A stretch of 64,000 nt of DNA from Promethearchaeati archaeon SRVP18_Atabeyarchaeia-1 (GCA_037308085.1 CP147779.1:128001-192000), one strand, 5' to 3'. Counted from the stretch's first letter, positions 377-28,393 are shown. Made by a program: numbers and translations. Notes: generated by a model not told the origin, from the letters alone.

Positions 377-1666
377 TCAGGACAGGTATTCCAGCGCAAT
401 CAGGGCGTACGCCTTTGAGCACAAGGTGAGATCTTTCCTAATTACGTATTCGTTCGCCGAGTGGGCTGTCTCAGAGGTGGGCCCCAGAACCACGGTTGGA
501 ATGCCTAGCTTGTTTCTGATGAATCTTGCGTCTGTCCCTCCAGGCTGGATCATGATGTGTGGTTCTTTTCCCCATGCATCAAATAGGCATTTCTTCACTA
601 GCCCAACTAAGGGTGTGCCTGGATCTTGATAGGACGGCTCAACGTTTTCGAGAGACTCAACTGTGACACCTTTAATATCCGATTCTCCGATGACTTTCTG
701 TATTCTTGCCAAGGTTTCCTGTAGGTCGCCCAGCGGTGGTACTCTTACATCAATCTCAGCGATTGCCTCATCTGGAACGACATTCGATTTAATGCCACCC
801 TTTATCATTCCCGGGCTGAAGGTTAACCGCGTGTAGAGGCGCTGAATCTGCTCGAGGTTTAGCCCGAGTATCTTATTGAACATCGAGTAGAATGGCTTTC
901 CAGTGTTGAACAGAGTGCTCAGTCTCTGATCGATTTCTATTGCGCTTTGGCTCAGCTCCTCTATCCTTGGTATTATTCTGACTAGTTTGTCAATGGCGTT
1001 TTCCCCTAGGAATGGCATGCTTGCATGCGCTGACCTGCCGGACGCTTTCACCTTGAGTGTCAGGATTCCTTTCTCGGCCACTGCAAATGCTGGCCCCCAC
1101 AATTGGTTGCAGGTTCCTTCACCAACTATGCATGCATCGACGTTCGAGTAGTAGCCCTTCTCGACGAGGAATCCTGTTCCGTATTTCCCCATCGTCTCTT
1201 CGTCAGGAACAAAGTGGAATGTGAGGTTGCCGTTGAGCTCGATATTTTTTTCGACAATCACGGAAGCTGCTTCAAGAGCTGATGCTATTGAGCCCTTCAT
1301 GTCAGCGGCTCCCCTTCCAACTAGCATCGAGCCTTTCAAGGTGCCCTTGTAAGGGTCGCTTTTCCACTCTTCTATTCTTCCCGGGGGAACCACGTCCAAG
1401 TGCCCATTCCAGACGAATGTCTTGGTGCTCGCTCCACCTCGCAGTGAGGCTATAACGTTTACGCGACCCTTGTCGGGCGCAACTGTCTCGACCTTGAAGC
1501 CTTTGCCCAGAAGGTAGTCTTTGACGAATCCAGCTATTTCGCTGACGTCCCCGGGAGGGTTGACGCTTCTGAACCCAATGAGGTCGCAACATAGTTTGAC
1601 TATCTCATCTTCCCGAGCACCTATCTCGTTCAAGACATCTTTGTAGTCGTTCAAAATGGACACCAC
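377..1666 (-). CDS. M20 family (ArgE/DapE-like) metallo-amidohydrolase
   Basis: NGHLDVVP, GRGAADMKG, DEE, and C-terminal AHSANE metal-ligand motifs; starts 20 bp after the ftr-like stop. Confidence 0.9.
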   Translation of the reverse strand: MVSILNDYKDVLNEIGAREDEIVKLCCDLIGFRSVNPPGDVSEIAGFVKDYLLGKGFKVETVAPDKGRVNVIASLRGGASTKTFVWNGHLDVVPPGRIEEWKSDPYKGTLKGSMLVGRGAADMKGSIASALEAASVIVEKNIELNGNLTFHFVPDEETMGKYGTGFLVEKGYYSNVDACIVGEGTCNQLWGPAFAVAEKGILTLKVKASGRSAHASMPFLGENAIDKLVRIIPRIEELSQSAIEIDQRLSTLFNTGKPFYSMFNKILGLNLEQIQRLYTRLTFSPGMIKGGIKSNVVPDEAIAEIDVRVPPLGDLQETLARIQKVIGESDIKGVTVESLENVEPSYQDPGTPLVGLVKKCLFDAWGKEPHIMIQPGGTDARFIRNKLGIPTVVLGPTSETAHSANEYVIRKDLTLCSKAYALIALEYLS

Positions 1667-1686: not shown

Positions 1687-2745
1687 TCATAATTGGCTAA
1701 GTAGTTCCCTCAGATATATCTTGTATCTTCCCAGTTTTCCTCCGTAGTTTCCGGCGGAGATCTTGATGACGCCATCCATCTCGTGGACGCTCTTCATTCC
1801 CTTTTTGAGGGCTTTCTTCACGGCATCCAAGGAGACTCCGTCGACCACGATTTCTGGGATTGATTTCACACCGATAGGCACTTTCGTCCTATTCTTGAGC
1901 TTATCCCGTAGAGTTGAGCAGTAGAGATAGTTTGTCGGAGGACCGATTGGCGGGTAATCTTCTGCAGCTGAACCTGAAGGGCAGACGTAGAATGGTGTAA
2001 TTACACCCTCAACTTGCTTTATTGCTTCCAATACTTTTCTGCCAGCTTTTCGACCTGTCTCCACGCTGTCACAGAGCAGCCACAGGTTGCCGCCCGAGAC
2101 GCCGATGCCACATCTTAGGTATCGATCCGTCTTGAAGTCATAGCCCATCATCAGGGGAACGTTGATCGTCTCTCTGCCGTTCTCAGAGGAGAACCATTCA
2201 TAGCCTCCGCCACATTTACCTATCCGCTCTTCAGTATCTATGGCAAGATTGCCCTCGCTTGTCTCCCCTCCTGGATGGGGTAAAGCGAATACTCTGGTTG
2301 TGCTGACTGAGAGAACGTCTTGGCGAATTCTGATGGACATCTCCTTATAGAACCTCTCCAATTGCCTTGGGATGTCTTCGTTTTCATCGAATCTTCCCCA
2401 AAGCTGAACTACCACTCCTTCACGGTTGTCTGGAGTTTGCTTTCTCGTCAGCCATCTCTCTATCCCGCCCTCGATTCTTCCAACGACAACCGAAGGAGTT
2501 GCTGTGCACCTATATGCCGCTAATCGCAACTCGTCGTATTCTATCCCGGGGTTACTCCTATCGCTTGCCTTCAGACCCCTTTCACCGGTGATTAATAGCC
2601 GCACGTACAACCCAGAAAAAGCTTCTGCAAAAGTATCTTCAACATTCTCGTATCCTCCCTTCTCAGCGGGCACTTGGAAGATCTTCCTCCGGATTTTGGG
2701 CATGGCTGGACCAATAGTCTGGCGTATTTGGCCTGGGTTTGGCAA
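1687..2745 (-). CDS. Formylmethanofuran:H4MPT formyltransferase-like protein (divergent Ftr paralog)
   Basis: VEDTFAEAF, EGGIE, TPDNREG, GVSGGN, PEIVVDG, ISAGNYGGKLG are Ftr-fold motifs. It lacks the canonical TSVIxCxxEAG and RIGQC segments (has TPSVVVGRIEGG and RIRQDVL). Alternative ATG at 2703. Confidence 0.85.
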   Translation of the reverse strand: MPNPGQIRQTIGPAMPKIRRKIFQVPAEKGGYENVEDTFAEAFSGLYVRLLITGERGLKASDRSNPGIEYDELRLAAYRCTATPSVVVGRIEGGIERWLTRKQTPDNREGVVVQLWGRFDENEDIPRQLERFYKEMSIRIRQDVLSVSTTRVFALPHPGGETSEGNLAIDTEERIGKCGGGYEWFSSENGRETINVPLMMGYDFKTDRYLRCGIGVSGGNLWLLCDSVETGRKAGRKVLEAIKQVEGVITPFYVCPSGSAAEDYPPIGPPTNYLYCSTLRDKLKNRTKVPIGVKSIPEIVVDGVSLDAVKKALKKGMKSVHEMDGVIKISAGNYGGKLGRYKIYLRELLSQL

Positions 2746-2758
2746 GAAGCGTCAGGGA

Positions 2759-4165
2759 TCAGGGACGATCCTCTAGCTTAGGGTATGTCTTCCATTTTGA
2801 CTGTACCTTCTTGATCATTTCCTGCGTATTCCTCCCTATGTCGCTCCTGTGCCTTAGGGCACCCTTTACATATCGGGTGGCGCCTTCCGCAATACTCTCA
2901 GCCTCTTCAAGAGACTCGGATATTCCGAGGACTGCCAAGGCTCTGGACTTCGTTGTAAGAATACCTTCATCACTCATGTTTACACTTGCCCAATAGTACC
3001 TCGCACCTGTATTCCTCATCCCTTCCTGATCCACCTCGACTCGTTGATTCTCTTTCGGATTCTCTGGATAGCCTTCAGGGACAAGGTACTTGCACACGGT
3101 TGCCCTATTGGCGAACCTCAGCTTCTTGGCACTCAGTGTTTCGTCGACCATGCTCCAATAGATTTCGATTGGATCATCATTTTCGAGTATCGGCAATATA
3201 TTGATAGCTTCTGAGTCACCGAGTCGCACGTTCGCTTCGGTGAGTATTGTTGTTGGTCTCCGCTTAGCCGGGCTTATCCCTTTCATCATCTGAGCGTATA
3301 GAAATCCGTGGTATCGCTCTCCAGTTTCCTTTGCTAGCGCAGAAGTGATGTTCAGTACCATCTGGGCAGTTTCTTCATACTCTCTTCTTGAGAAAAATGG
3401 CATAAGCTGGTCGCTTTGACTGTAGCTACCCATGCCGCCTGTGTTTGGACCTTCGTTGTCTTCGTAGGCTCGTTTATAATCTTGCACACATGGTGCCGGT
3501 ACGACGCTCTTGCCATCGGTGAATGTCTGTATGGTTACTTCAAGTGGGTACAGTATTTTCTCCTCGATTACTACTGATTGGAGTCCTCCTGGCTTGTCTT
3601 TCAGTATGGACTCGACATATTCCTTTGTTTCGTCGGAGTCCGTGAGTTGTTCGCCCGTAAGTTTCACTCCTTTTCCCCCTGTCAGCCCCGAAGGTTTTAT
3701 TGCCAGAGGGATCCCCTTCTTATTCATTTCTTCAATGTAACTGAAAGCTTCAACCGGGCTCGTGAATGAACGGTACTCTGGATAATACAGGATGTTGTGT
3801 TTCCTCATTAGGTCTCTGCAGTAGCTCTTATCTCCTTCTATCATTGCACATGCTTTGACCGGACCGACGCACGGGATCTTGTTTCTTGCCAAAGCGTCGG
3901 CCACGCCAGATACCAAGGGATCCTCGGGTCCGATAACCGCTATGTCGATTCGCTTCTCCACGGCATAGTCAGCGACTACCTGTGGGCTGCTGGTTGCACC
4001 CTTTGCCCCGATCCTGTAGTTTCCTTTGCTGCCACAGAGTTTTGCGATGCTCGGGTTCAACTTGTCGGAAATAACGTAAAGTATTGTTGAAGGACTTGTC
4101 GTTACGCTTTCAGCAATTGCCGCCTCTCTTCCTCCAGATCCGACTAGCAGTACCTTTGTCGCCAA
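2759..4165 (-). CDS. purD: Phosphoribosylamine-glycine ligase (GAR synthetase)
   Basis: VLLVGSGGRE, GPEDPL, GGKGV, QDYKRAYEDNEGPNTGGMG, RSDIG. Confidence 0.96.
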   Translation of the reverse strand: MATKVLLVGSGGREAAIAESVTTSPSTILYVISDKLNPSIAKLCGSKGNYRIGAKGATSSPQVVADYAVEKRIDIAVIGPEDPLVSGVADALARNKIPCVGPVKACAMIEGDKSYCRDLMRKHNILYYPEYRSFTSPVEAFSYIEEMNKKGIPLAIKPSGLTGGKGVKLTGEQLTDSDETKEYVESILKDKPGGLQSVVIEEKILYPLEVTIQTFTDGKSVVPAPCVQDYKRAYEDNEGPNTGGMGSYSQSDQLMPFFSRREYEETAQMVLNITSALAKETGERYHGFLYAQMMKGISPAKRRPTTILTEANVRLGDSEAINILPILENDDPIEIYWSMVDETLSAKKLRFANRATVCKYLVPEGYPENPKENQRVEVDQEGMRNTGARYYWASVNMSDEGILTTKSRALAVLGISESLEEAESIAEGATRYVKGALRHRSDIGRNTQEMIKKVQSKWKTYPKLEDRP

Positions 4166-4262
4166 TATCCCTCACCCTCAACTTGCCGCTGTTGCACGCA
4201 TCTTCTGAATTCGCGCGCCGCTCAGCAGACTGAAGCGATAGTATTTTTCTGGCTCGGGCAAT

Positions 4263-5702
4263 TCATTGCGCTCTGCTTCCAAGGGTGGCCTCAAGCAGCT
4301 CCATTTGAGGAGGAGCATTCAAAGGATACTCTCCCGTAAGGCATGCCATGCAGAGTTGGTTATGTGGCAAGCCTATGCTCCTCACAAGTCCATCTATATT
4401 CATGTACCCCAGCGTGTCAGCGCCTACATCTCTCCTGATTTCCTCAATAGTCTTCATGGATGCAATCAGTTCCCGCCTCGTGGGGAAATCTATCCCCATG
4501 TAGCATGAGGAAATGATCGGGGGGCAACTGATTCTTAGATGGACTTTTCTTGCGCCACCGACAGTCTTGAGCAGGTTCACAATAAACTTAGATGTCGTTG
4601 ATCTTACGATGCTGTCATCTATGACTACTATCTCCTTTCCCGCAGTCACAGATCTAATTGGATTTAGCTTTAACCTTACGAGAAGCTCACGATCCTCTGC
4701 CTTGGGAGTAATGAATATCCTGCCGACATAGCGATTCTTCATTAGGCCTTCGGCGAGTGGTATCCCAGACTCTTCAGAGAAACCAGCAGCAGCCGCTCTC
4801 CCCGAGTCCGGAACTGGTATCACATAGTCAGCTTTCACAGGGTGAAGTTTCCAGAGGAATCTGCCCAGTCTCTTCCTTACTTCCCAGACAGCCTTTCCAT
4901 CTATGACGGAGTCTGGGCGGCTAAAGTAGACAAACTCAAACATGCAAAGTGCTTTACGCTGAACGCTGACGGCACGTTCTCGCTCAAACCCTGTTTCGTC
5001 AACCCTAATGATCTCACCAGGGTGTACGTCGCCTATTGTCTTGCCTCCTACTGCCTCCACAGCTGGAGACTCAGAGGCAATCACGTGTGCGTATTGGTTT
5101 ATTGAGCCTAGGCAGAGCGGTTTGAAGCCTCTTGGATCCCTCATGGCGCATAGTTCTCCTTTGTTGCTAAGGAGAATCATTGAGTAAGATCCATCGAGGA
5201 TGCTCATACTCCCTTTGAGTGCTTCGAGGTAGCTTCCTGTCTCTTTTACCTTCGAGGCAATCAACCGAGCAAGTACTTCAGTGTCTGTATCTGTCTTGAA
5301 AGCCTCGCCCTCAGCCTTGAGGGACTCTCTAAGTTGCATGAAATTGCTTATTGTTCCATTGAAAGCCAAAGCAAAATTGGCGTGTGGGGACTGTAGCAGA
5401 AATGGCTGGGCATTGGCGACATTGCTCTCTGAGGTTGTGCTATATCTCACATGACCAATTGAGGCGTTCCCCCCGAGGCTGTCAAGTATCGTCTTGTTGA
5501 ACACTTGTGTAGCAAGTCCCATTCCCTTGTAACCAGTGAGCTCCCCGTGTGATAGATCCTTGAACGTGTAGATGCCGGCGCTTTCTTGGCCCCGATGCTG
5601 CAGAGAGACAAGACCGTTGTAGGTATGGTGGGGAACTGCCTCAGGGTACTTCCTTGAATAGATTCCGAAGACCCCGCAAGACTCCCTAGCCTTCTCGCCC
5701 AC
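4263..5702 (-). CDS. purF: Amidophosphoribosyltransferase
   Basis: Short propeptide then CGVFG, QHRGQESAG, GHVRYST, PRPP loop VIDDSIVRSTT, Fe-S cysteines (CMFE, CYMG, CMAC). Confidence 0.97.
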   Translation of the reverse strand: MGEKARESCGVFGIYSRKYPEAVPHHTYNGLVSLQHRGQESAGIYTFKDLSHGELTGYKGMGLATQVFNKTILDSLGGNASIGHVRYSTTSESNVANAQPFLLQSPHANFALAFNGTISNFMQLRESLKAEGEAFKTDTDTEVLARLIASKVKETGSYLEALKGSMSILDGSYSMILLSNKGELCAMRDPRGFKPLCLGSINQYAHVIASESPAVEAVGGKTIGDVHPGEIIRVDETGFERERAVSVQRKALCMFEFVYFSRPDSVIDGKAVWEVRKRLGRFLWKLHPVKADYVIPVPDSGRAAAAGFSEESGIPLAEGLMKNRYVGRIFITPKAEDRELLVRLKLNPIRSVTAGKEIVVIDDSIVRSTTSKFIVNLLKTVGGARKVHLRISCPPIISSCYMGIDFPTRRELIASMKTIEEIRRDVGADTLGYMNIDGLVRSIGLPHNQLCMACLTGEYPLNAPPQMELLEATLGSRAQ

Positions 5703-5706
5703 CCGC

Positions 5707-7926
5707 CTAGACGCCTCCTATTGATCCACCTATCGATTCAAACCACGCCTTGCGCATGGGTTCCACGCCGCAGGTCAGTACTTTCTCTTTCTTATCACTC
5801 ATCATCAATTCGCCCGTATCAGTAACTTTTCCTACCTCGGCAACCCTAGCGCCGAGATTAGATGCCAATGAGAGAAATTCGTCGAGGTTCTTTCTTGAGA
5901 TCGTCATTATGAATCTTGAGTTACTTTCTGAGAAGAGTAATTCGTCTCTCTGCATTTTGTCTCCTGGAACTTCAGGCAAGTCTATCTCGGCACCGAGCCC
6001 ACTGAGAACGCACATCTCACCTACTGCAACCGCGAGCCCGCCATCTGAGCAGTCGTGGACGGTTTCAGTCAGACCTTGGCAAATTGATTTGTATGCCAGC
6101 ATCATTGAGCGCCTTTCTTCAGAGCCAAAGAATTTCGGAGGCTCTCCTCCAGTGATGTTGTGAATCCAGTTGTAGTATTCTGATCCACCCAACTCGCGTC
6201 TCGTCTTACCTACGATGTAGATTGAGTCGCCGTGCTCCTTGAAGGGTATCGTTGCGAGATGACGTACGTCTTCGATTAGACCGAGAACTGCGACAACTGG
6301 GCTGGGTTTCACTGCCTTTCCAGTTGCAGAATCTTCGTTGTAGAAACTCACCTTTCCCCCTATGCAAGGAACGCCGAGTGCTTTGCATGCATCAGCCATT
6401 CCTCTTACTGCTTCCCGGAACTGCCAGAAGACATCAGGTCTTTCTGGGTTCCCGAAATTGCAGTGGTCAACCATGGCAATCGGCTCAGCTCCGACTGCAG
6501 CAACGTTGCGACATGCCTCGGCAAGCGCACTCGCGCCTCCATTATATGGATCTAAAGATGTTCGCCGGGAATTTCCGTCAGCCTTTACCGCCAACCCCTT
6601 GTTCGTTCCGATGAGCCTTAGAACTGCGGCGTCCGCTTGACCAAGCTTCAATACTGTTCTGACGCCGACTTCAAAATCGTATTGCCGGTAGATCCATTCC
6701 TTGCTAGCTACGTTCGGAGATGAAAGCAATTTGATGAGAGTTTCCGAAAGATCTGTTGGGGGTTCCGGCTTGCGTGCCTTTCCTATCTGGCTCAAGTTGT
6801 CTGGCTTTTTGGCTTCTCTCTTGGCGATTGGAGCTTTTGCAGCCAATTCTGCAGGCAGATCAGCAACGATTCTATCATCTACCTTGACGACTACATTTCT
6901 CGTTTCAGTGACCCTACCAATTATCGAGTAAGGTAGTTCGTACTTGTCAAATACTCTGAGGACTTCCTCCACTCCAGACGGTTCGACAACAAACAGCATC
7001 CTTTCCTGTGACTCCGACAGCATTATCTCGTACGGAGTCATTCCACTCTCCCTTAACCGAACCTTTGACAGATCAATCTCTATACCCGTTCCTCCATCCG
7101 CGGCAATCTCAATTGCGCCACAAGTCAGCCCGCCTCCGCCGAGATCCTTCAGTCCCCGAACGTGATTCGTCTCAATTGCCGCCAAGGTCGCTTCAATTAT
7201 AATGTTCTTTAAGAAAGGATCGCCAACCTGAACTGCGGGTCTGTCCACGTCAGATTCGCCACTTAGAACCCTCGAGGCAAAGGTTACCCCATGAAGGCCA
7301 TCACGCCCCGTGGAACCTCCTGCAAGTATCACGATGTCTCCAGGGAACCTTGCTCCACCAGCGATTATCCTATCTCGCTTGGCTATTCCGACGCATCCAA
7401 CACAAACCAGACAATTCATTTCAAATGAGGGGTCAAACTCGACTTCTCCCGTTACGGTTGGAACGCCAACACTATTTCCGTAGTCGGCTATTCCCTTGAC
7501 AACATATTTCAGTAGCCATCTTGATCTCGCGCTCGTGATTGAGCCAAAGCGCAGAGGATCCATTAACGCGATTGGTCTCGTCCCCATGCTCAGAACGTCT
7601 CTCAACACTCCTCCTATACCCGTCCCCGCGCCATTGTAAGGGTCGATTGCGCTCGGGTGGTTGTGAGATTCTATTTTGAGTGTTGCAGCAAGTCCGTCTC
7701 CTATATCCACTACGCCAGCATCGTAGCCTGGACCAATTATCACGCGTGCGCTCGTTGTAGGTAGGAGCTTGATAACTGGGCGAGAGGATTTGTAGCAGAT
7801 GTGTTCAGAGAACATGGTGTCGAACATACCCCACTCCACTTCATTTGGCTCCCTGCGGAGTGACCTGCGGACGTATCTGATTTCTTCGTCAGTCAGATCT
7901 ACTTTCACTCCGACTGAGGTGGACAT
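5707..7926 (-). CDS. purL: FGAM synthase subunit PurL
   Basis: FSEHICYKSS, ESHNHPSAIDPYNGA, DLGGGGL, SESQERM, HDCSDGGL, LFSES. Confidence 0.97.
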   Translation of the reverse strand: MSTSVGVKVDLTDEEIRYVRRSLRREPNEVEWGMFDTMFSEHICYKSSRPVIKLLPTTSARVIIGPGYDAGVVDIGDGLAATLKIESHNHPSAIDPYNGAGTGIGGVLRDVLSMGTRPIALMDPLRFGSITSARSRWLLKYVVKGIADYGNSVGVPTVTGEVEFDPSFEMNCLVCVGCVGIAKRDRIIAGGARFPGDIVILAGGSTGRDGLHGVTFASRVLSGESDVDRPAVQVGDPFLKNIIIEATLAAIETNHVRGLKDLGGGGLTCGAIEIAADGGTGIEIDLSKVRLRESGMTPYEIMLSESQERMLFVVEPSGVEEVLRVFDKYELPYSIIGRVTETRNVVVKVDDRIVADLPAELAAKAPIAKREAKKPDNLSQIGKARKPEPPTDLSETLIKLLSSPNVASKEWIYRQYDFEVGVRTVLKLGQADAAVLRLIGTNKGLAVKADGNSRRTSLDPYNGGASALAEACRNVAAVGAEPIAMVDHCNFGNPERPDVFWQFREAVRGMADACKALGVPCIGGKVSFYNEDSATGKAVKPSPVVAVLGLIEDVRHLATIPFKEHGDSIYIVGKTRRELGGSEYYNWIHNITGGEPPKFFGSEERRSMMLAYKSICQGLTETVHDCSDGGLAVAVGEMCVLSGLGAEIDLPEVPGDKMQRDELLFSESNSRFIMTISRKNLDEFLSLASNLGARVAEVGKVTDTGELMMSDKKEKVLTCGVEPMRKAWFESIGGSIGGV

Positions 7927-7929
7927 CTT

Positions 7930-8640
7930 CTACTGGTCACCTCCCGCAAACTCTATCATTGAGCGGAGTATTGATAGCCCGTCCTCGGTTCCGTTTGGGC
8001 TGAGAATTCGTTCTGACGATCTTTCTGGATGTGGCATTAGTCCAGCAACATTTCCCTCAGTATTACAGATCCCCGCAATATTGTCCAGTGCGCCGTTGGG
8101 GTTTGATTCATCTGTCGTCTCGCCTGACTTGTCCACATATTTGAAAACAATCTGGTTGTTCCTCTTCATCTCTTGCATGGCTTCTTCGTCAATGAAGTAC
8201 CTGCCTTCGCCGTGGGCGATGGGCAGGGAAAGTATCGCTCCTTTGGTCAGGCTTCGCGTGAGAGGGGACTTGTTGTTCTCCACCCGCAAATATATCCACT
8301 TGCATACAAAAGTCAGGCATGAGTTTCTTAGTAGCGCACCAGGAAGCAGACCAGATTCAACAAGGATCTGGAACCCGTTGCAGATGCCAAGAACAGGTTT
8401 GCCGTCTGCTGCCATTCGCCTTATGCTCTTCAATGCTGGGCTGAATGCTGCTATGATCCCTGCGCGTAGGTGGTCCCCATAAGAGAACCCGCCAGGCAGA
8501 ATGGCAATATCATAGTCATGGTCATTAAATTCCTTGTGCCAAATTAAGCGAGCATCTACCCTCAAAACATCTTTCAAAACATGAAGGGTGTCGTACCTGC
8601 AGTTTGAACCCGGGAAGTCTATGATAGCGACTTTGAGCAT
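7930..8640 (-). CDS. purQ: FGAM synthase glutaminase subunit PurQ
   Basis: FPGSNC, PGGFSYGDHLRAG, GICNGFQIL, MPHPER. Confidence 0.97.
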   Translation of the reverse strand: MLKVAIIDFPGSNCRYDTLHVLKDVLRVDARLIWHKEFNDHDYDIAILPGGFSYGDHLRAGIIAAFSPALKSIRRMAADGKPVLGICNGFQILVESGLLPGALLRNSCLTFVCKWIYLRVENNKSPLTRSLTKGAILSLPIAHGEGRYFIDEEAMQEMKRNNQIVFKYVDKSGETTDESNPNGALDNIAGICNTEGNVAGLMPHPERSSERILSPNGTEDGLSILRSMIEFAGGDQ

Positions 8641-8676
8641 CTGTACCCCCCGAAGTCCTTTTCCAATTCTTCTGAC

Positions 8677-8943
8677 CTACTCTTCAACTCCCTTGACGTG
8701 AATTGAGCACGTGTGCGCCACGGGATTGAATATCCTGAGGTCGTTGCACATTCTGAAGATGATGCTCTTCGCGTCGTCTTCTGATCGTGCTTCAACCTTG
8801 GCCCTAAGAAGTTTTGCCGCTCTGATGGACTTCACTTCGCCGTATCCGCCTTTGTTTACGAGATCTCTCCAGATTGTTTCTCCTTCTGGATCCCTCGCGG
8901 CGGGTTTGTTCTCAATCACGATTTCAACCGTGAAAAGAGACAT
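8677..8943 (-). CDS. purS: FGAM synthase subunit PurS
   Basis: 88 aa with KPAARDPEG and NPV motifs; directly upstream of purQ; GGAGG SD. Confidence 0.93.
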   Translation of the reverse strand: MSLFTVEIVIENKPAARDPEGETIWRDLVNKGGYGEVKSIRAAKLLRAKVEARSEDDAKSIIFRMCNDLRIFNPVAHTCSIHVKGVEE

Positions 8944-9370: not shown

Positions 9371-10270
9371 TCAGTAGCCCAATCTCTGAAGCAGCTGGTT
9401 GGGTGAGATGGCATTCTTGTTTAGGCCAAGTTCTTCTTTGCTGAGCCCAAGCGCCAATCCAAGAAGCTGTGTGTAGTAGAAAACAGGAATATTGAATTCT
9501 TCTCCAAATTGCTTTTTGATGTCGAGTTGCCCTCCCTCAAGCTGCATATGACAAAACGGGCAACAATCGACGATGCAATCGACGTTCGCGGCTTTGATGT
9601 TGTTCAGCTTCTCACGTACCATGTCTGTGGCGACCGCCAGATTTGAGGAGCGAACACCACCACCCGCTCCGCAACACATATTCTTGTCCTTGTAGTCTAT
9701 ACTCTTAGCTCCGGTCGCTTCCACAAGTTCATCGAGGAATCTCGGGTTCTCAGTGACTCCCCATCGCCTTATCTCGCTTGGCTTAACTATGTGACATCCA
9801 TAGTGAACTGCTACACGAAGTGGTAGACTATTCTCGACATGCTCTGCGATCTTGCTTGGTCCTAGATCCACGTATAGGGCCTCTACCAGGTGCTTGACGT
9901 CTACCGTTCCGAGATACTCTCTTGCTCCGGCTTCCTTGAGTATCTTGTTTACCCAATCTCTTTTTGCTTCGTTGTGCTTCAGTGTCTCATTGGTTTCTCT
10001 CAAGGTACCATAGCATCCATTGCATCCAGTAAGAATATTGCACCCGAGCTGTTCCGCAATAGTGATGTTTCTGGCGCCTGCTGCCAGCCAGAATTTGTTG
10101 CTGAAGGATCTGATGACACCCGGAGCCGGGCAACAAGAAGCTCCTTTCATGTCAAGGAGTTCTATTCCGAGACTTGGCATCACGTTTCTAATAGATGCCT
10201 CGATATTCGGATATCTGTCAGGTATCATGCAACCTAAGAAAAATGCATACCTTGAGTTCGAGTCGCCCAT
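9371..10270 (-). CDS. hdrB: Heterodisulfide reductase subunit B
   Basis: FFLGC, SCCPAPG, CNGC, HYGCH, CCGAGGG, CPFCHMQ (two CCG domains). Confidence 0.95.
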   Translation of the reverse strand: MGDSNSRYAFFLGCMIPDRYPNIEASIRNVMPSLGIELLDMKGASCCPAPGVIRSFSNKFWLAAGARNITIAEQLGCNILTGCNGCYGTLRETNETLKHNEAKRDWVNKILKEAGAREYLGTVDVKHLVEALYVDLGPSKIAEHVENSLPLRVAVHYGCHIVKPSEIRRWGVTENPRFLDELVEATGAKSIDYKDKNMCCGAGGGVRSSNLAVATDMVREKLNNIKAANVDCIVDCCPFCHMQLEGGQLDIKKQFGEEFNIPVFYYTQLLGLALGLSKEELGLNKNAISPNQLLQRLGY

Positions 10271-10277
10271 TCGTCAA

Positions 10278-10829
10278 TCACTTCTCCGAGCATCCTACAA
10301 GTTTGTCAAAGCCTGTAAGTTTGGCTATCATCTGGACCTGTCTTAAAGCATCCCCGTAGCTTGCTGTGGTGGGTGGTTTCTCAGGCAACCCCAAGCTCTT
10401 TCTAAGGCTGCTCCATTTGGGGTCGTCAATCGGGACCGCATGACCGTATTCTATCAGCTTCTGGGCAGCTACCCTGTGTGCTGGAAGAATATGCCCCGCC
10501 TCCACAGCCATGTTGCGAATCTCTATTATTGTGTTTACGGTTTCTATCTTCCGCGGACAACGTTCATAACAAGTGTAACAAGTAGTGCAAAGCCATATGT
10601 TCGGATCAGCGAGGAGTTCGTCTTTCAAGCCTAGAAGGGCGGACCTCATGATTTGCCTCGTTCTATAGGCAGTTCTCCTTCCTGACGGGCAAGAAGCCGT
10701 GCAGGTTCCGCATTGGATGCAGGATCTGAGGCGTTCCGCACCAGCCTCCACTATCCGATTGATGAACTCCTGATCACCTTGGGATGTTCGTATCGTTTTT
10801 CTCTCGATGGCAGCATCAGTTGACATCAC
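10278..10829 (-). CDS. hdrC: Heterodisulfide reductase subunit C
   Basis: CIQCGTCTASCPS and WLCTTCYTCYERCPR 4Fe-4S motifs; GHAVP; adjacent to hdrB. Confidence 0.95.
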   Translation of the reverse strand: MMSTDAAIERKTIRTSQGDQEFINRIVEAGAERLRSCIQCGTCTASCPSGRRTAYRTRQIMRSALLGLKDELLADPNIWLCTTCYTCYERCPRKIETVNTIIEIRNMAVEAGHILPAHRVAAQKLIEYGHAVPIDDPKWSSLRKSLGLPEKPPTTASYGDALRQVQMIAKLTGFDKLVGCSEK

Positions 10830-26458: not shown

Positions 26459-27883
26459 TTATAATTTGTTTATGCCTTGAGGTGGAAGCATCAAAGATCC
26501 TGTCACTATGTAGTTCGGATATAGGGCGCCACCTGACGTGATGCAAGGCTTGTTTCCACCTGACTGCCACTGGGCGAAAATCGGAACGCCGTAGGGCCAG
26601 CCATAACTTAAGTCGTGGCTACGTGTGAACGCTGCTTTGCCAGCGACACCGGTTATTGGATTAGCTTTGTTTATCGTCTCGAGCGCTGCGACTAGCTTGT
26701 AGTTGGTGAATGACTGGGTTTGGTTGATTGCGTATCGTAGCAGGGTAATAGCGTCGTATCCGCCGGCTGAAGTGTATATCGGAACCGCACTAAAGTTGCC
26801 TAGGTAGTGGTCCCAGAATGGTATCGTATAGACGGTCTTGTTGTGTCTCACGAATGTCTGCAATACAACTTCGTACATGCATTTTCCTGCTGTATCGGTC
26901 CAAAATGATTGGAGTTGTGACGGTACATTGATGCCACAAATGAGGCACTGAGGTCTTGTCGCGTTGTACTGTGTGTCCATAAGTACTCCGCCCTGGGCGG
27001 ATATTATGGGTATTACCACTTGGGCTTTCGAACCATTAATCGCGGTCCAGTATCCTGAGAAAGCCGTACTATCCGCTGTCATTGGAAATGCAATGTCCTG
27101 AACTGGAGTAGGGTCCCAGCCAATAGCTCCCATGTATGCTTTCAGCGCGTTGTCCATTGGTACCGTCCAGTCAAGGGCTTCTCTTAGGACAGCCCAGTGT
27201 TTCACCATACTTGTGTTGCCACCGAAAGCCATTGCAGCAATAACGTTTCTCAGAACTGCTAGTTCCGTGATCGCTGATGATCCTAGGGAAGTTGAGTTGA
27301 TCGGCTGGTCTCTGAAGAAGTACTGGTATCTCGAGTGGCTGTCCAAGACGTTTTGGCAGAAGTAGTCTGTGGCTGCACCTGTGCCAATGAATATCAACTT
27401 ATGATCCATTACTGTTTCGATATATGCTTTCAGTGATTCTGTCCTGAATCCGCCAGTCAGGAATTGGGCCCCATCCACTGATATTATCTTTTGCGCAGCA
27501 GCGACACCTTTGCTTGTGTCAAGAAATGCCGCAGCTTCAGATGTGTCCTCGGATATTAGCCCGAAGTAGTAATGTGTTCCGTTGACAACTACGCCACCTG
27601 CAGTATTAATTTCGTACGCTGCAAGCCATGACCCCTGCCAAGATCCTTTACCTGTTGAATCGGTCATGTCGTCAAGGACGCCTACCTTGATTATCTGGCT
27701 GTCTGGTACACCTGTTACCCCTGGAGTCACATATGAGATGCCTCGTTGCGTTAGCAAGATAGCTCCGCCGACGCCTGCTACGGCGATAACGACGACGACT
27801 GCGATTGCGATTATTCTCTTCTGTCCTGTACTCATTCCCATCTTCTTTTCAGTCCTCTCTCTCTCTCTTCCAGATTCGGCCAT
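26459..27883 (-). CDS. Membrane-anchored ABC substrate-binding protein (LivK/J-like)
   Basis: N-terminal hydrophobic anchor, LAAYEINTAGG motif, many N-x-S/T sequons; heads the liv cluster. Confidence 0.88.
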   Translation of the reverse strand: MAESGRERERTEKKMGMSTGQKRIIAIAVVVVIAVAGVGGAILLTQRGISYVTPGVTGVPDSQIIKVGVLDDMTDSTGKGSWQGSWLAAYEINTAGGVVVNGTHYYFGLISEDTSEAAAFLDTSKGVAAAQKIISVDGAQFLTGGFRTESLKAYIETVMDHKLIFIGTGAATDYFCQNVLDSHSRYQYFFRDQPINSTSLGSSAITELAVLRNVIAAMAFGGNTSMVKHWAVLREALDWTVPMDNALKAYMGAIGWDPTPVQDIAFPMTADSTAFSGYWTAINGSKAQVVIPIISAQGGVLMDTQYNATRPQCLICGINVPSQLQSFWTDTAGKCMYEVVLQTFVRHNKTVYTIPFWDHYLGNFSAVPIYTSAGGYDAITLLRYAINQTQSFTNYKLVAALETINKANPITGVAGKAAFTRSHDLSYGWPYGVPIFAQWQSGGNKPCITSGGALYPNYIVTGSLMLPPQGINKL

Positions 27884-28189
27884 ATTGGCTTAGGGTGTCG
27901 GTATGTTGGTTTGATGTATAAAACTCTTTCTGTTTACACAACTCCTCGCCGATACGGGCAACGCTTCCCATGATGAGGTTAATGGGGAAGATGAGTCAAT
28001 GATTGGAGCGCCAGATGCTTCATTTGAATTGCCAGACTTCTGATCAAGATTCTCGCAAATCCCCGTTGGCAGTTGGCAGCCAGGTAGTCTTACCAATTGC
28101 ACGATGTTCTCACACCGTACTCCGCATGTCATTTGCCTGGCTATCTGCGTCCAGGTTCCCAGAAAAATCGCTTGGAGGTGATAGCCATA

Positions 28190-28393
28190 ATGGTAAGAAG
28201 GAGTGAGGTGATAATCTGGCTGAAAACTTGGAGGATTGCTGAAGGCTTGGTAAATGTCCTCAAACAGGTAGGCGACTCGCATACCCATTGGTGGGCGGCA
28301 GACAGGCTTGGCGTAATCAGAGACCCGATGGCTGTTGAGCTCTCAAGAGAGATGTTTCTCGGTCTCCAGTGTAGACTTAGATGGACACGGTAG
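28190..28393 (+). pseudogene. Probable decayed HEAT-repeat gene fragment
   Basis: GGAGGTGA SD then ATG 28190. AEGLVNVLKQVGDSHTHWWAADRLGVIRDPMAVEL resembles one degenerate HEAT repeat, followed by an early stop. Confidence 0.4.

Follow-up and report, generated by a model that had tools for sequence, protein, structure and literature searches.

The stretch of DNA analysed here, hereafter the window, comprises 64,000 nucleotides of the genome of Promethearchaeati archaeon SRVP18_Atabeyarchaeia-1 (GCA_037308085.1 CP147779.1:128001-192000). Near its beginning lies a purine biosynthesis operon that ends in a gene for a paralog of formylmethanofuran:tetrahydromethanopterin formyltransferase (Ftr), which we call FtrL. 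The six genes purS-purQ-purL-purF-purD-ftrL are all on the minus strand and in the places given for them by a preliminary description made from the sequence. Three encode formylglycinamidine ribonucleotide (FGAM) synthase, i.e., step 4 of the pathway: purS (8677..8943; 62.8 bits on Pfam PurS and 45.1 on TIGR00302, cut-off 39), the glutaminase subunit purQ (7930..8640; TIGR01737, 310 bits, cut-off 178), and purL (5707..7926; FGAM synthase II, TIGR01736, 930 bits, cut-off 526), which consumes formylglycinamide ribonucleotide (FGAR). They are followed by the amidophosphoribosyltransferase purF of step 1 (4263..5702; TIGR01134, 456 bits, cut-off 350) and by purD of step 2 (2759..4165), the synthetase that produces glycinamide ribonucleotide (GAR), which has three GARS Pfam domains and scores 358 bits on TIGR00877 (cut-off 288). 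All five thus exceed their NCBIfam equivalog cut-offs, and the earlier assignment of the operon to steps 1, 2, and 4 holds. FtrL itself (1687..2673) carries the Pfam domains FTR and FTR_C and is the candidate formyltransferase for step 3. The gap of 13 nt reported between purD and ftrL is correct only when counted to the first in-frame TTG (2745), from which the open reading frame (ORF) is open; the start codon is likely GTG 2673, which has a GGAGG 11 nt before it and coincides with the first residue of the 328-aa database protein P0002, or else ATG 2703, and the real gap is likely 55-85 nt. In-frame stops in some FtrL matches were considered as signs of selenocysteine or of pseudogenes and then discarded: once re-aligned, they fall at query residue 7, upstream of the start, and the other copies have none.

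The absence of purN and purT, first remarked for the window, extends to the whole genome, which is a single contig of 2.81 Mb and 96.9% complete. The PurN model has zero matches across it, and the PurT model (TIGR01142) has no match above cut-off, the best being ATP-grasp proteins at 36-39 bits, namely a 1111-aa ORF and a 441-aa MfnD-like ligase. The latter, which has the best PurT-model match, was rejected as a cryptic PurT: it is MfnD-like and adjoins an MfnF-like gene. This adjacency of genes for an MfnD-like protein (tyramine-glutamate ligase) and an MfnF-like protein (genome 1413553-1416008; L005:17-2472) also suggests that this presumably non-methanogenic Asgard host probably makes methanofuran. 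PurF, PurD, PurLQS, PurM, and PurP were all found, accounting for steps 1, 2, 4, 5, and 9, and PurH was not found in the whole genome. PurP, the formate- and ATP-dependent enzyme of step 9, is full-length and adjoins purM in a second pur cluster. Our check covered steps 1-5 and 9, and among these the only gap is at step 3, the formylation of GAR to FGAR. The genome encodes three Ftr paralogs: FtrL, a separate canonical Ftr encoded next to mtd, and a third one whose gene neighbours that of a glutamine-synthetase-like protein.

FtrL has the sequence and the fold of the Ftr family. It passes both Pfam thresholds (FTR, 94.3 bits; FTR_C, 144.9 bits) and remains under both NCBIfam cut-offs for Ftr (NF002554, 250.6 vs 297; TIGR03119, 171.5 vs 292.6). 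Its AlphaFold2 (AF2) model, with a predicted local distance difference test (pLDDT) score of 87.1, matches 1ftr_A in Foldseek with an E-value of 1.4e-27 and a template modelling (TM) score of 0.88. The same two-lobe fold is found in canonical Ftr (EC 2.3.1.101; 1FTR/2FHJ, 1M5H, 1M5S) and in FhcD of the bacterial Fhc complex (6S6Y), with TM scores of 0.86-0.88 depending on the target and identities of 28-33% (30-33% for 1FTR, 1M5H, and 1M5S). The glutamate that stabilises the oxyanion, Glu245 in Methanopyrus kandleri Ftr and Glu252 in FhcD (PMC6926001), corresponds to E274 of P0002 and does not vary within FtrL, canonical Ftr, or the third paralog. FtrL also retains 43 columns conserved across the family and is presumably, like canonical Ftr, an enzyme working at a dimer interface to move a formyl group between the N5 of a pterin and a primary amine. 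The segments singled out earlier as departing from the canonical enzyme (TPSVVVGRIEGG, RIRQDVL, IGKCGGGYEW, and IGPPTN) are all present in the translation. The changes specific to the clade lie beside the catalytic glutamate and in conserved loops: FGDG to CGGG, Tyr to Pro right before the glutamate, Gly to Arg, Ala to Pro, and an extra Trp. The subclade of the window's FtrL has in addition an insert of ~13 residues, and the closest named relatives of the protein are from Candidatus Atabeyarchaeum deiterrae and Njordarchaeota.

A phylogeny of the family (IQ-TREE, 75 sequences) separates three groups, supported by the Shimodaira-Hasegawa-like approximate likelihood ratio test (SH-aLRT): FtrL (46 sequences, SH-aLRT 100, branch length 0.73), canonical-type Ftr (23 sequences, including the type of the characterised enzymes, SH-aLRT 96), and the third Asgard paralog (six sequences, SH-aLRT 100). 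FtrL is therefore a distinct clade and not the housekeeping Ftr, and, with a canonical copy and a third paralog in the same genome, it is not the sole copy either, in line with the initial view of the protein. The scores of a profile built from 17 FtrL-type proteins are bimodal in every genome set, with FtrL-type proteins at >=288 bits and canonical or other Ftr at <=252. The clade has members in Asgard, Bathyarchaeia, Archaeoglobi, ANME-1, Alkanophaga, Methanoliparia, Methanocellales, and Hydrothermarchaeota. One of them is 100% identical to an Archaeoglobus protein other than the crystallised Ftr of Archaeoglobus fulgidus (210 bits to 1M5H); A. fulgidus has both Ftr types, and the FtrL type also occurs in Ferroglobus, A. 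veneficus, A. profundus, and Geoglobus. An uncharacterised paralog named Ftr2 has been described in ANME-1, Archaeoglobales, Methanopyrus, and Methanothermobacter (Chadwick et al. 2022, PMC9012536), and the FtrL clade holds the second Ftr of A. fulgidus and Ferroglobus as well as copies from Methanophagales.

The distribution of FtrL follows that of PurD and alternates with that of PurN and PurT. Among the ~490 archaeal genomes compared, we tallied 422, i.e., the Asgard and Bathyarchaeia genomes with PurD plus the Halobacteriota; every query was run on the same sample of genomes within each group, Methanobacteriales lie outside these samples, and the absences are called on mostly incomplete assemblies. 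A PurN/PurT-type enzyme alone was found in 242 genomes, FtrL alone in 143, both in 18, and none in 19. The pattern is repeated in each group: 66, 15, 12, and 7, respectively, for the 100 PurD-positive Asgard (of 151 Asgard genomes); 76, 57, 2, and 6 for the 141 PurD-positive Bathyarchaeia (of 161), where PurN-like and PurT-like proteins are included in the first class; and 100, 71, 4, and 6 for the 181 Halobacteriota. The 15 Asgard genomes with FtrL only come from six families. PurN or PurT is thus not routine in genomes carrying the FtrL clade, since only 18 of the 161 carriers have one. In Asgard, 27 of the 28 cases of FtrL are in PurD-positive genomes, and just one of the 51 PurD-negative genomes has it, canonical Ftr being common there. 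The first class in Bathyarchaeia is made of 25 genomes with PurN above the cut-off, 41 with a sub-threshold PurN-like protein, and 10 with a sub-threshold PurT-like protein. These PurN-like proteins (70-108 bits, ~280 aa) have PurN as their best model, and several are encoded directly after purD. For PurN-like proteins in general, an identification as PurU or Fmt was rejected, as they score 51-108 bits with PurN vs 35-44 with PurU and 26-32 with Fmt, and the domain is N-terminal.

The linkage to pur genes expected from the window recurs in Atabeyarchaeia, Borrarchaeum, a second Asgard family, and Bathyarchaeia, and it brings in two further proteins: a haloacid dehalogenase (HAD)-like protein and a ribokinase-like kinase of the PfkB family. 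We surveyed 80 FtrL loci, on contigs from one genome per species. About 55 of them have the order purF-purD-HAD-like-FtrL-PfkB, with purQ, purL, or purM adjoining; these are mostly from Bathyarchaeia, plus Borrarchaeum, where the three module genes are all adjacent. Two additional euryarchaeal loci have PfkB next to FtrL, and three others have the HAD-like gene <=4 kb away. The host genome does not have the three genes together: FtrL follows purD, and the HAD-like gene (genome positions 27147-28301) and PfkB are adjacent to each other by purM-purP, ~100 kb from the window. The HAD-like gene is beside purD, and FtrL elsewhere, in the Odin-like and Loki-like Asgard families. Depending on the lineage, each component is thus found tied to pur genes on its own. 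The HAD-like gene is present in 28 of 28 FtrL-positive Asgard genomes and in only 29 of the 151 Asgard genomes overall. Its product is atypical, with the motifs D-x-E-G-P (instead of D-x-D), a Ser, a Lys, and GDSITD, and the kinase comes closest to ribokinase and to ribose-1-phosphate kinases, with scores under their cut-offs. A search of the ESM Atlas places the HAD-like protein next to clusters automatically named EhaR (score 0.98, TM 0.92); the query was the model of a Bathyarchaeia homolog (L011:5899-6981), the AF2 model of the host protein (pLDDT 58) being too poor. Bacterial clusters, most often from Thermodesulfobacteriota, are among the close look-alikes in the Atlas (feature score 0.98, TM 0.91), so the family of this partner is not restricted to Archaea. 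The PurD encoded beside the module in Bathyarchaeia (e.g., L011:4496-5902) scores 220-281 bits on TIGR00877, under the cut-off, and that of other Bathyarchaeia 300-505 bits; the low-scoring type also accompanies a divergent PurN-like gene, and it could reflect a lineage effect or an altered substrate.

The strongest single argument for FtrL doing the job of PurN comes from loci where the two folds are exchanged within the module. In two Bathyarchaeia that have no FtrL, the order is purF-purD, then a divergent PurN-fold protein, then the HAD-like gene and PfkB, with the PurN-fold gene on the minus strand at L092:1860-2705 and L093:1841-2833, respectively. Two more have the same type of gene right after purD, again on the minus strand (L090:2299-3135 and L091:1923-2822), with the HAD-like gene elsewhere. 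These proteins (278-330 aa) score 51-77 bits on the PurN model, have a C-terminal extension, and retain the N-x-H motif and the Asp typical of PurN. In 13 Bathyarchaeia whose genes are of the ordinary PurN, 100-bit PurN-like, or PurT-like kind, we found no HAD-like gene. It is therefore the partners that stay while the formyltransferase switches between unrelated folds, which suggests that the HAD-like protein and PfkB belong to the formylation job and not to the choice of the cofactor fold.

We propose that FtrL is the formyl-transferring enzyme that would convert GAR to FGAR, providing carbon 8 of the purine, in the archaea that use tetrahydromethanopterin (H4MPT) and methanofuran and lack PurN and PurT. 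With a probability of about 60%, it performs the formylation of step 3 from the H4MPT/methanofuran one-carbon pool with the HAD-like protein and PfkB as partners. N5-formyl-H4MPT would donate the formyl group, and the acceptor would be the glycinamide primary amine, occupying in FtrL the position that the methanofuran aminomethyl group has in Ftr; formyl-methanofuran is a less likely donor. FtrL would thus have the same product and the same slot after purD as PurN, which uses 10-formyl-tetrahydrofolate, and PurT, which uses formate and ATP. It differs from both in having no sequence or fold relation to them (it has the Ftr fold and lacks the Formyl_trans_N fold and the Asn-His-Asp triad), in its proposed donor, which is neither folate nor free formate, and in being accompanied by two partners that do not go with ordinary PurN and PurT. 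It differs from canonical Ftr in being encoded in or near pur operons rather than with mtd, mch, or fwd.

The preliminary description saw in FtrL a stand-alone GAR transformylase. The candidacy for step 3 stands, given the separate clade, the pur linkage, and the alternation with PurN and PurT, but the enzyme is tied to the HAD-like protein and to a usually adjacent PfkB and would not act alone. For this reason plain GAR may not be the acceptor, and the reaction may be coupled to ATP. The simplest idea is that the two partners handle the 5'-phosphate of the substrate and of the product around the formyl transfer. Moving the formyl group from formyl-H4MPT onto methanofuran takes only +4.4 kJ/mol (PMC6926001); a like transfer to GAR would be near equilibrium, and the ATP-dependent PurL could pull it. 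A more elaborate scheme, which we consider unlikely as it stands, is an ATP-driven bypass in which the three proteins make a weak formyl donor usable: the HAD-like enzyme would remove the 5'-phosphate of GAR, FtrL (or, in a few Bathyarchaeia, the divergent PurN-fold enzyme) would formylate the glycinamide riboside from N5-formyl-H4MPT near equilibrium, and the riboside, only once formylated, would be re-phosphorylated by PfkB to give FGAR. The reaction would then be pulled at the cost of one ATP, as it is with PurT. Such a bypass would explain the order purD-HAD-FtrL-PfkB-purL, the position of the HAD-like gene beside purD in some lineages, the strict co-occurrence of FtrL and the HAD-like gene, and the persistence of both partners when the fold is swapped.

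Other functions can be envisaged for the module or for FtrL. The HAD-like protein, FtrL, and PfkB could make or recycle another formylated ribose compound, such as an intermediate of H4MPT, methanofuran, or F420 or a product of salvage or repair, and cluster with pur genes because of shared phosphoribosyl pyrophosphate or ribose. This fits the affinity of the kinase to ribokinase and ribose-1-phosphate kinases, the near-complete set of phosphatase motifs of the HAD-like protein, and the scattering of the module genes in Halobacteriota, as well as the Ftr-like EhaS and ribokinase-like EhaT of Methanothermobacter being encoded in a hydrogenase operon and not in a pur operon (PMC3087415). Yet it leaves unexplained why the alternation with PurN/PurT-type enzymes is almost exclusive in three phyla and the occurrence confined to PurD-positive genomes, why the module lies between purD and purL, in keeping with the order of the pathway, and why a PurN-fold enzyme is swapped in within it, and we regard it as improbable. 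We think the same of the idea that FtrL is a second isoenzyme of the ordinary formylmethanofuran:H4MPT formyltransferase, used to balance an anabolic pool or, via a hydrolase, to provide PurP with formate, the true GAR transformylase being another protein. PurU feeds PurT with formate in Escherichia coli in this manner. The retention of the fold, the catalytic glutamate, and the family-wide columns is what one would expect of an isoenzyme, the host does use the formate-dependent PurP, and in four Bathyarchaeia genomes that carry Mch and FwdA, FtrL is the only Ftr-family gene. But a canonical Ftr is already present beside mtd in the host, and FtrL tracks PurD and not the Wood-Ljungdahl genes, as the PurD-negative Asgard show. 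A supplier of formate would be expected together with PurT, and all 12 Halobacteriota carrying PurT lack FtrL, which argues against a mere supply of formate; moreover, the protein that substitutes for FtrL within the module has the PurN fold and is not a hydrolase. Finally, we give very little credit to an action of the module at step 9, the conversion of aminoimidazole carboxamide ribonucleotide to its formylated form, or at both formylation steps. The folate-dependent PurH is also missing from the host, and PurN and PurH usually co-vary, so the exclusion of PurN could mirror that of PurH; against this, PurP is full-length beside purM, the place between purD and purL is that of step 3, and the displacing protein fits PurN best (51-77 bits vs 35-44 for PurU).

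A number of points weigh against a role of FtrL in step 3. A PurN/PurT-type enzyme is also present in 18 of the carriers; 12 of them are in one Asgard family, and three of the four in Halobacteriota look like Methanoliparia. The 19 genomes expected to need step 3 and having none of the candidates imply another route or undetected genes. The counts are taken over related genomes, are not independent, and overstate the independence of the pattern; and the presence of FtrL is confounded with a folate-free lifestyle based on H4MPT only. It is our own judgement to score as GAR transformylases those PurN-like proteins of Bathyarchaeia that stay under the cut-off (70-108 bits), and only some adjoin purD. 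In Halobacteriota FtrL lacks pur linkage, as it does in the loci of ANME-1 and Methanocellales. A simple reaction between GAR and formyl-H4MPT does not explain the HAD-like and PfkB partners, and N10-formyl-H4MPT is not believed to be a formyl donor according to a passage of PMC3261824 (after Maden 2000), the donor proposed here being the N5 form. The four Bathyarchaeia in which FtrL is the sole Ftr could be incomplete, or their FtrL may have retained the ordinary Ftr activity.

Archaeoglobi, Methanobacteriales, and Methanopyrus have been reported since 2011 to lack a gene for GAR formylation (PMC3261824), as has ANME-1 since 2022 (PMC9012536), and FtrL with its two partner enzymes is the best candidate for the archaeal step-3 enzyme missing since the first of these reports. 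The Ftr2 clade and the lack of PurN and PurT in ANME-1 are both described in PMC9012536, in separate sections that are not joined, and a full-text search of the literature found no paper tying an Ftr paralog or methanofuran to GAR formylation or purines. The present case contributes the split arrangement, the counts conditioned on PurD, the co-occurrence with the HAD-like gene in 28 of 28 genomes, and the swap between the Ftr fold and the PurN fold. The HAD-like protein, FtrL, and PfkB resemble EhaR, EhaS, and EhaT, whose genes close the Methanothermobacter eha operon; EhaS is described as Ftr-like and EhaT as ribokinase-like in PMC3087415, which makes no connection to the missing GAR transformylase, and going by the literature EhaS would belong with FtrL. 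The window's FtrL is in a pur operon, whereas EhaS is in that of a hydrogenase. If our proposal is correct, purine step 3 would have a third solution, homologous to neither PurN nor PurT, and for the first time the methanopterin/methanofuran formyl pool would be seen to serve a biosynthesis apart from energy metabolism and the Wood-Ljungdahl pathway. Thousands of genes that are annotated today as ordinary Ftr would need correction, and the presence of Ftr-like and ribokinase-like genes in the operon of the anaplerotic Eha hydrogenase in methanogens would be explained.

The third Ftr paralog of the host (299 aa), which belongs to the Asgard clade mentioned above, is in a region ~14-24 kb past the end of the window (genome 206293-216782; L139:2293-12782). 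Its gene is divergently paired with a glutamine-synthetase-like gene and a HutI-like amidohydrolase, and genes for histidine ammonia-lyase and urocanase are close by; the surrounding stretch that we examined shows neither HutG nor FTCD. This may be another instance of an Ftr paralog replacing a folate-dependent formyl or formimino transfer.

On the same strand as the pur operon, the ORF of an M20 deacylase of the ArgE/DapE family (377..1666; TIGR01910, 269 bits, cut-off 218; Pfam Peptidase_M20 and M20_dimer) starts 20 nt past the FtrL stop and is possibly co-transcribed with FtrL. Directly upstream of the operon, also on the minus strand, are hdrB and hdrC (9371-10829; TIGR03288, 424 bits, and TIGR03290, 197 bits, respectively), in a host that is presumably not methanogenic.

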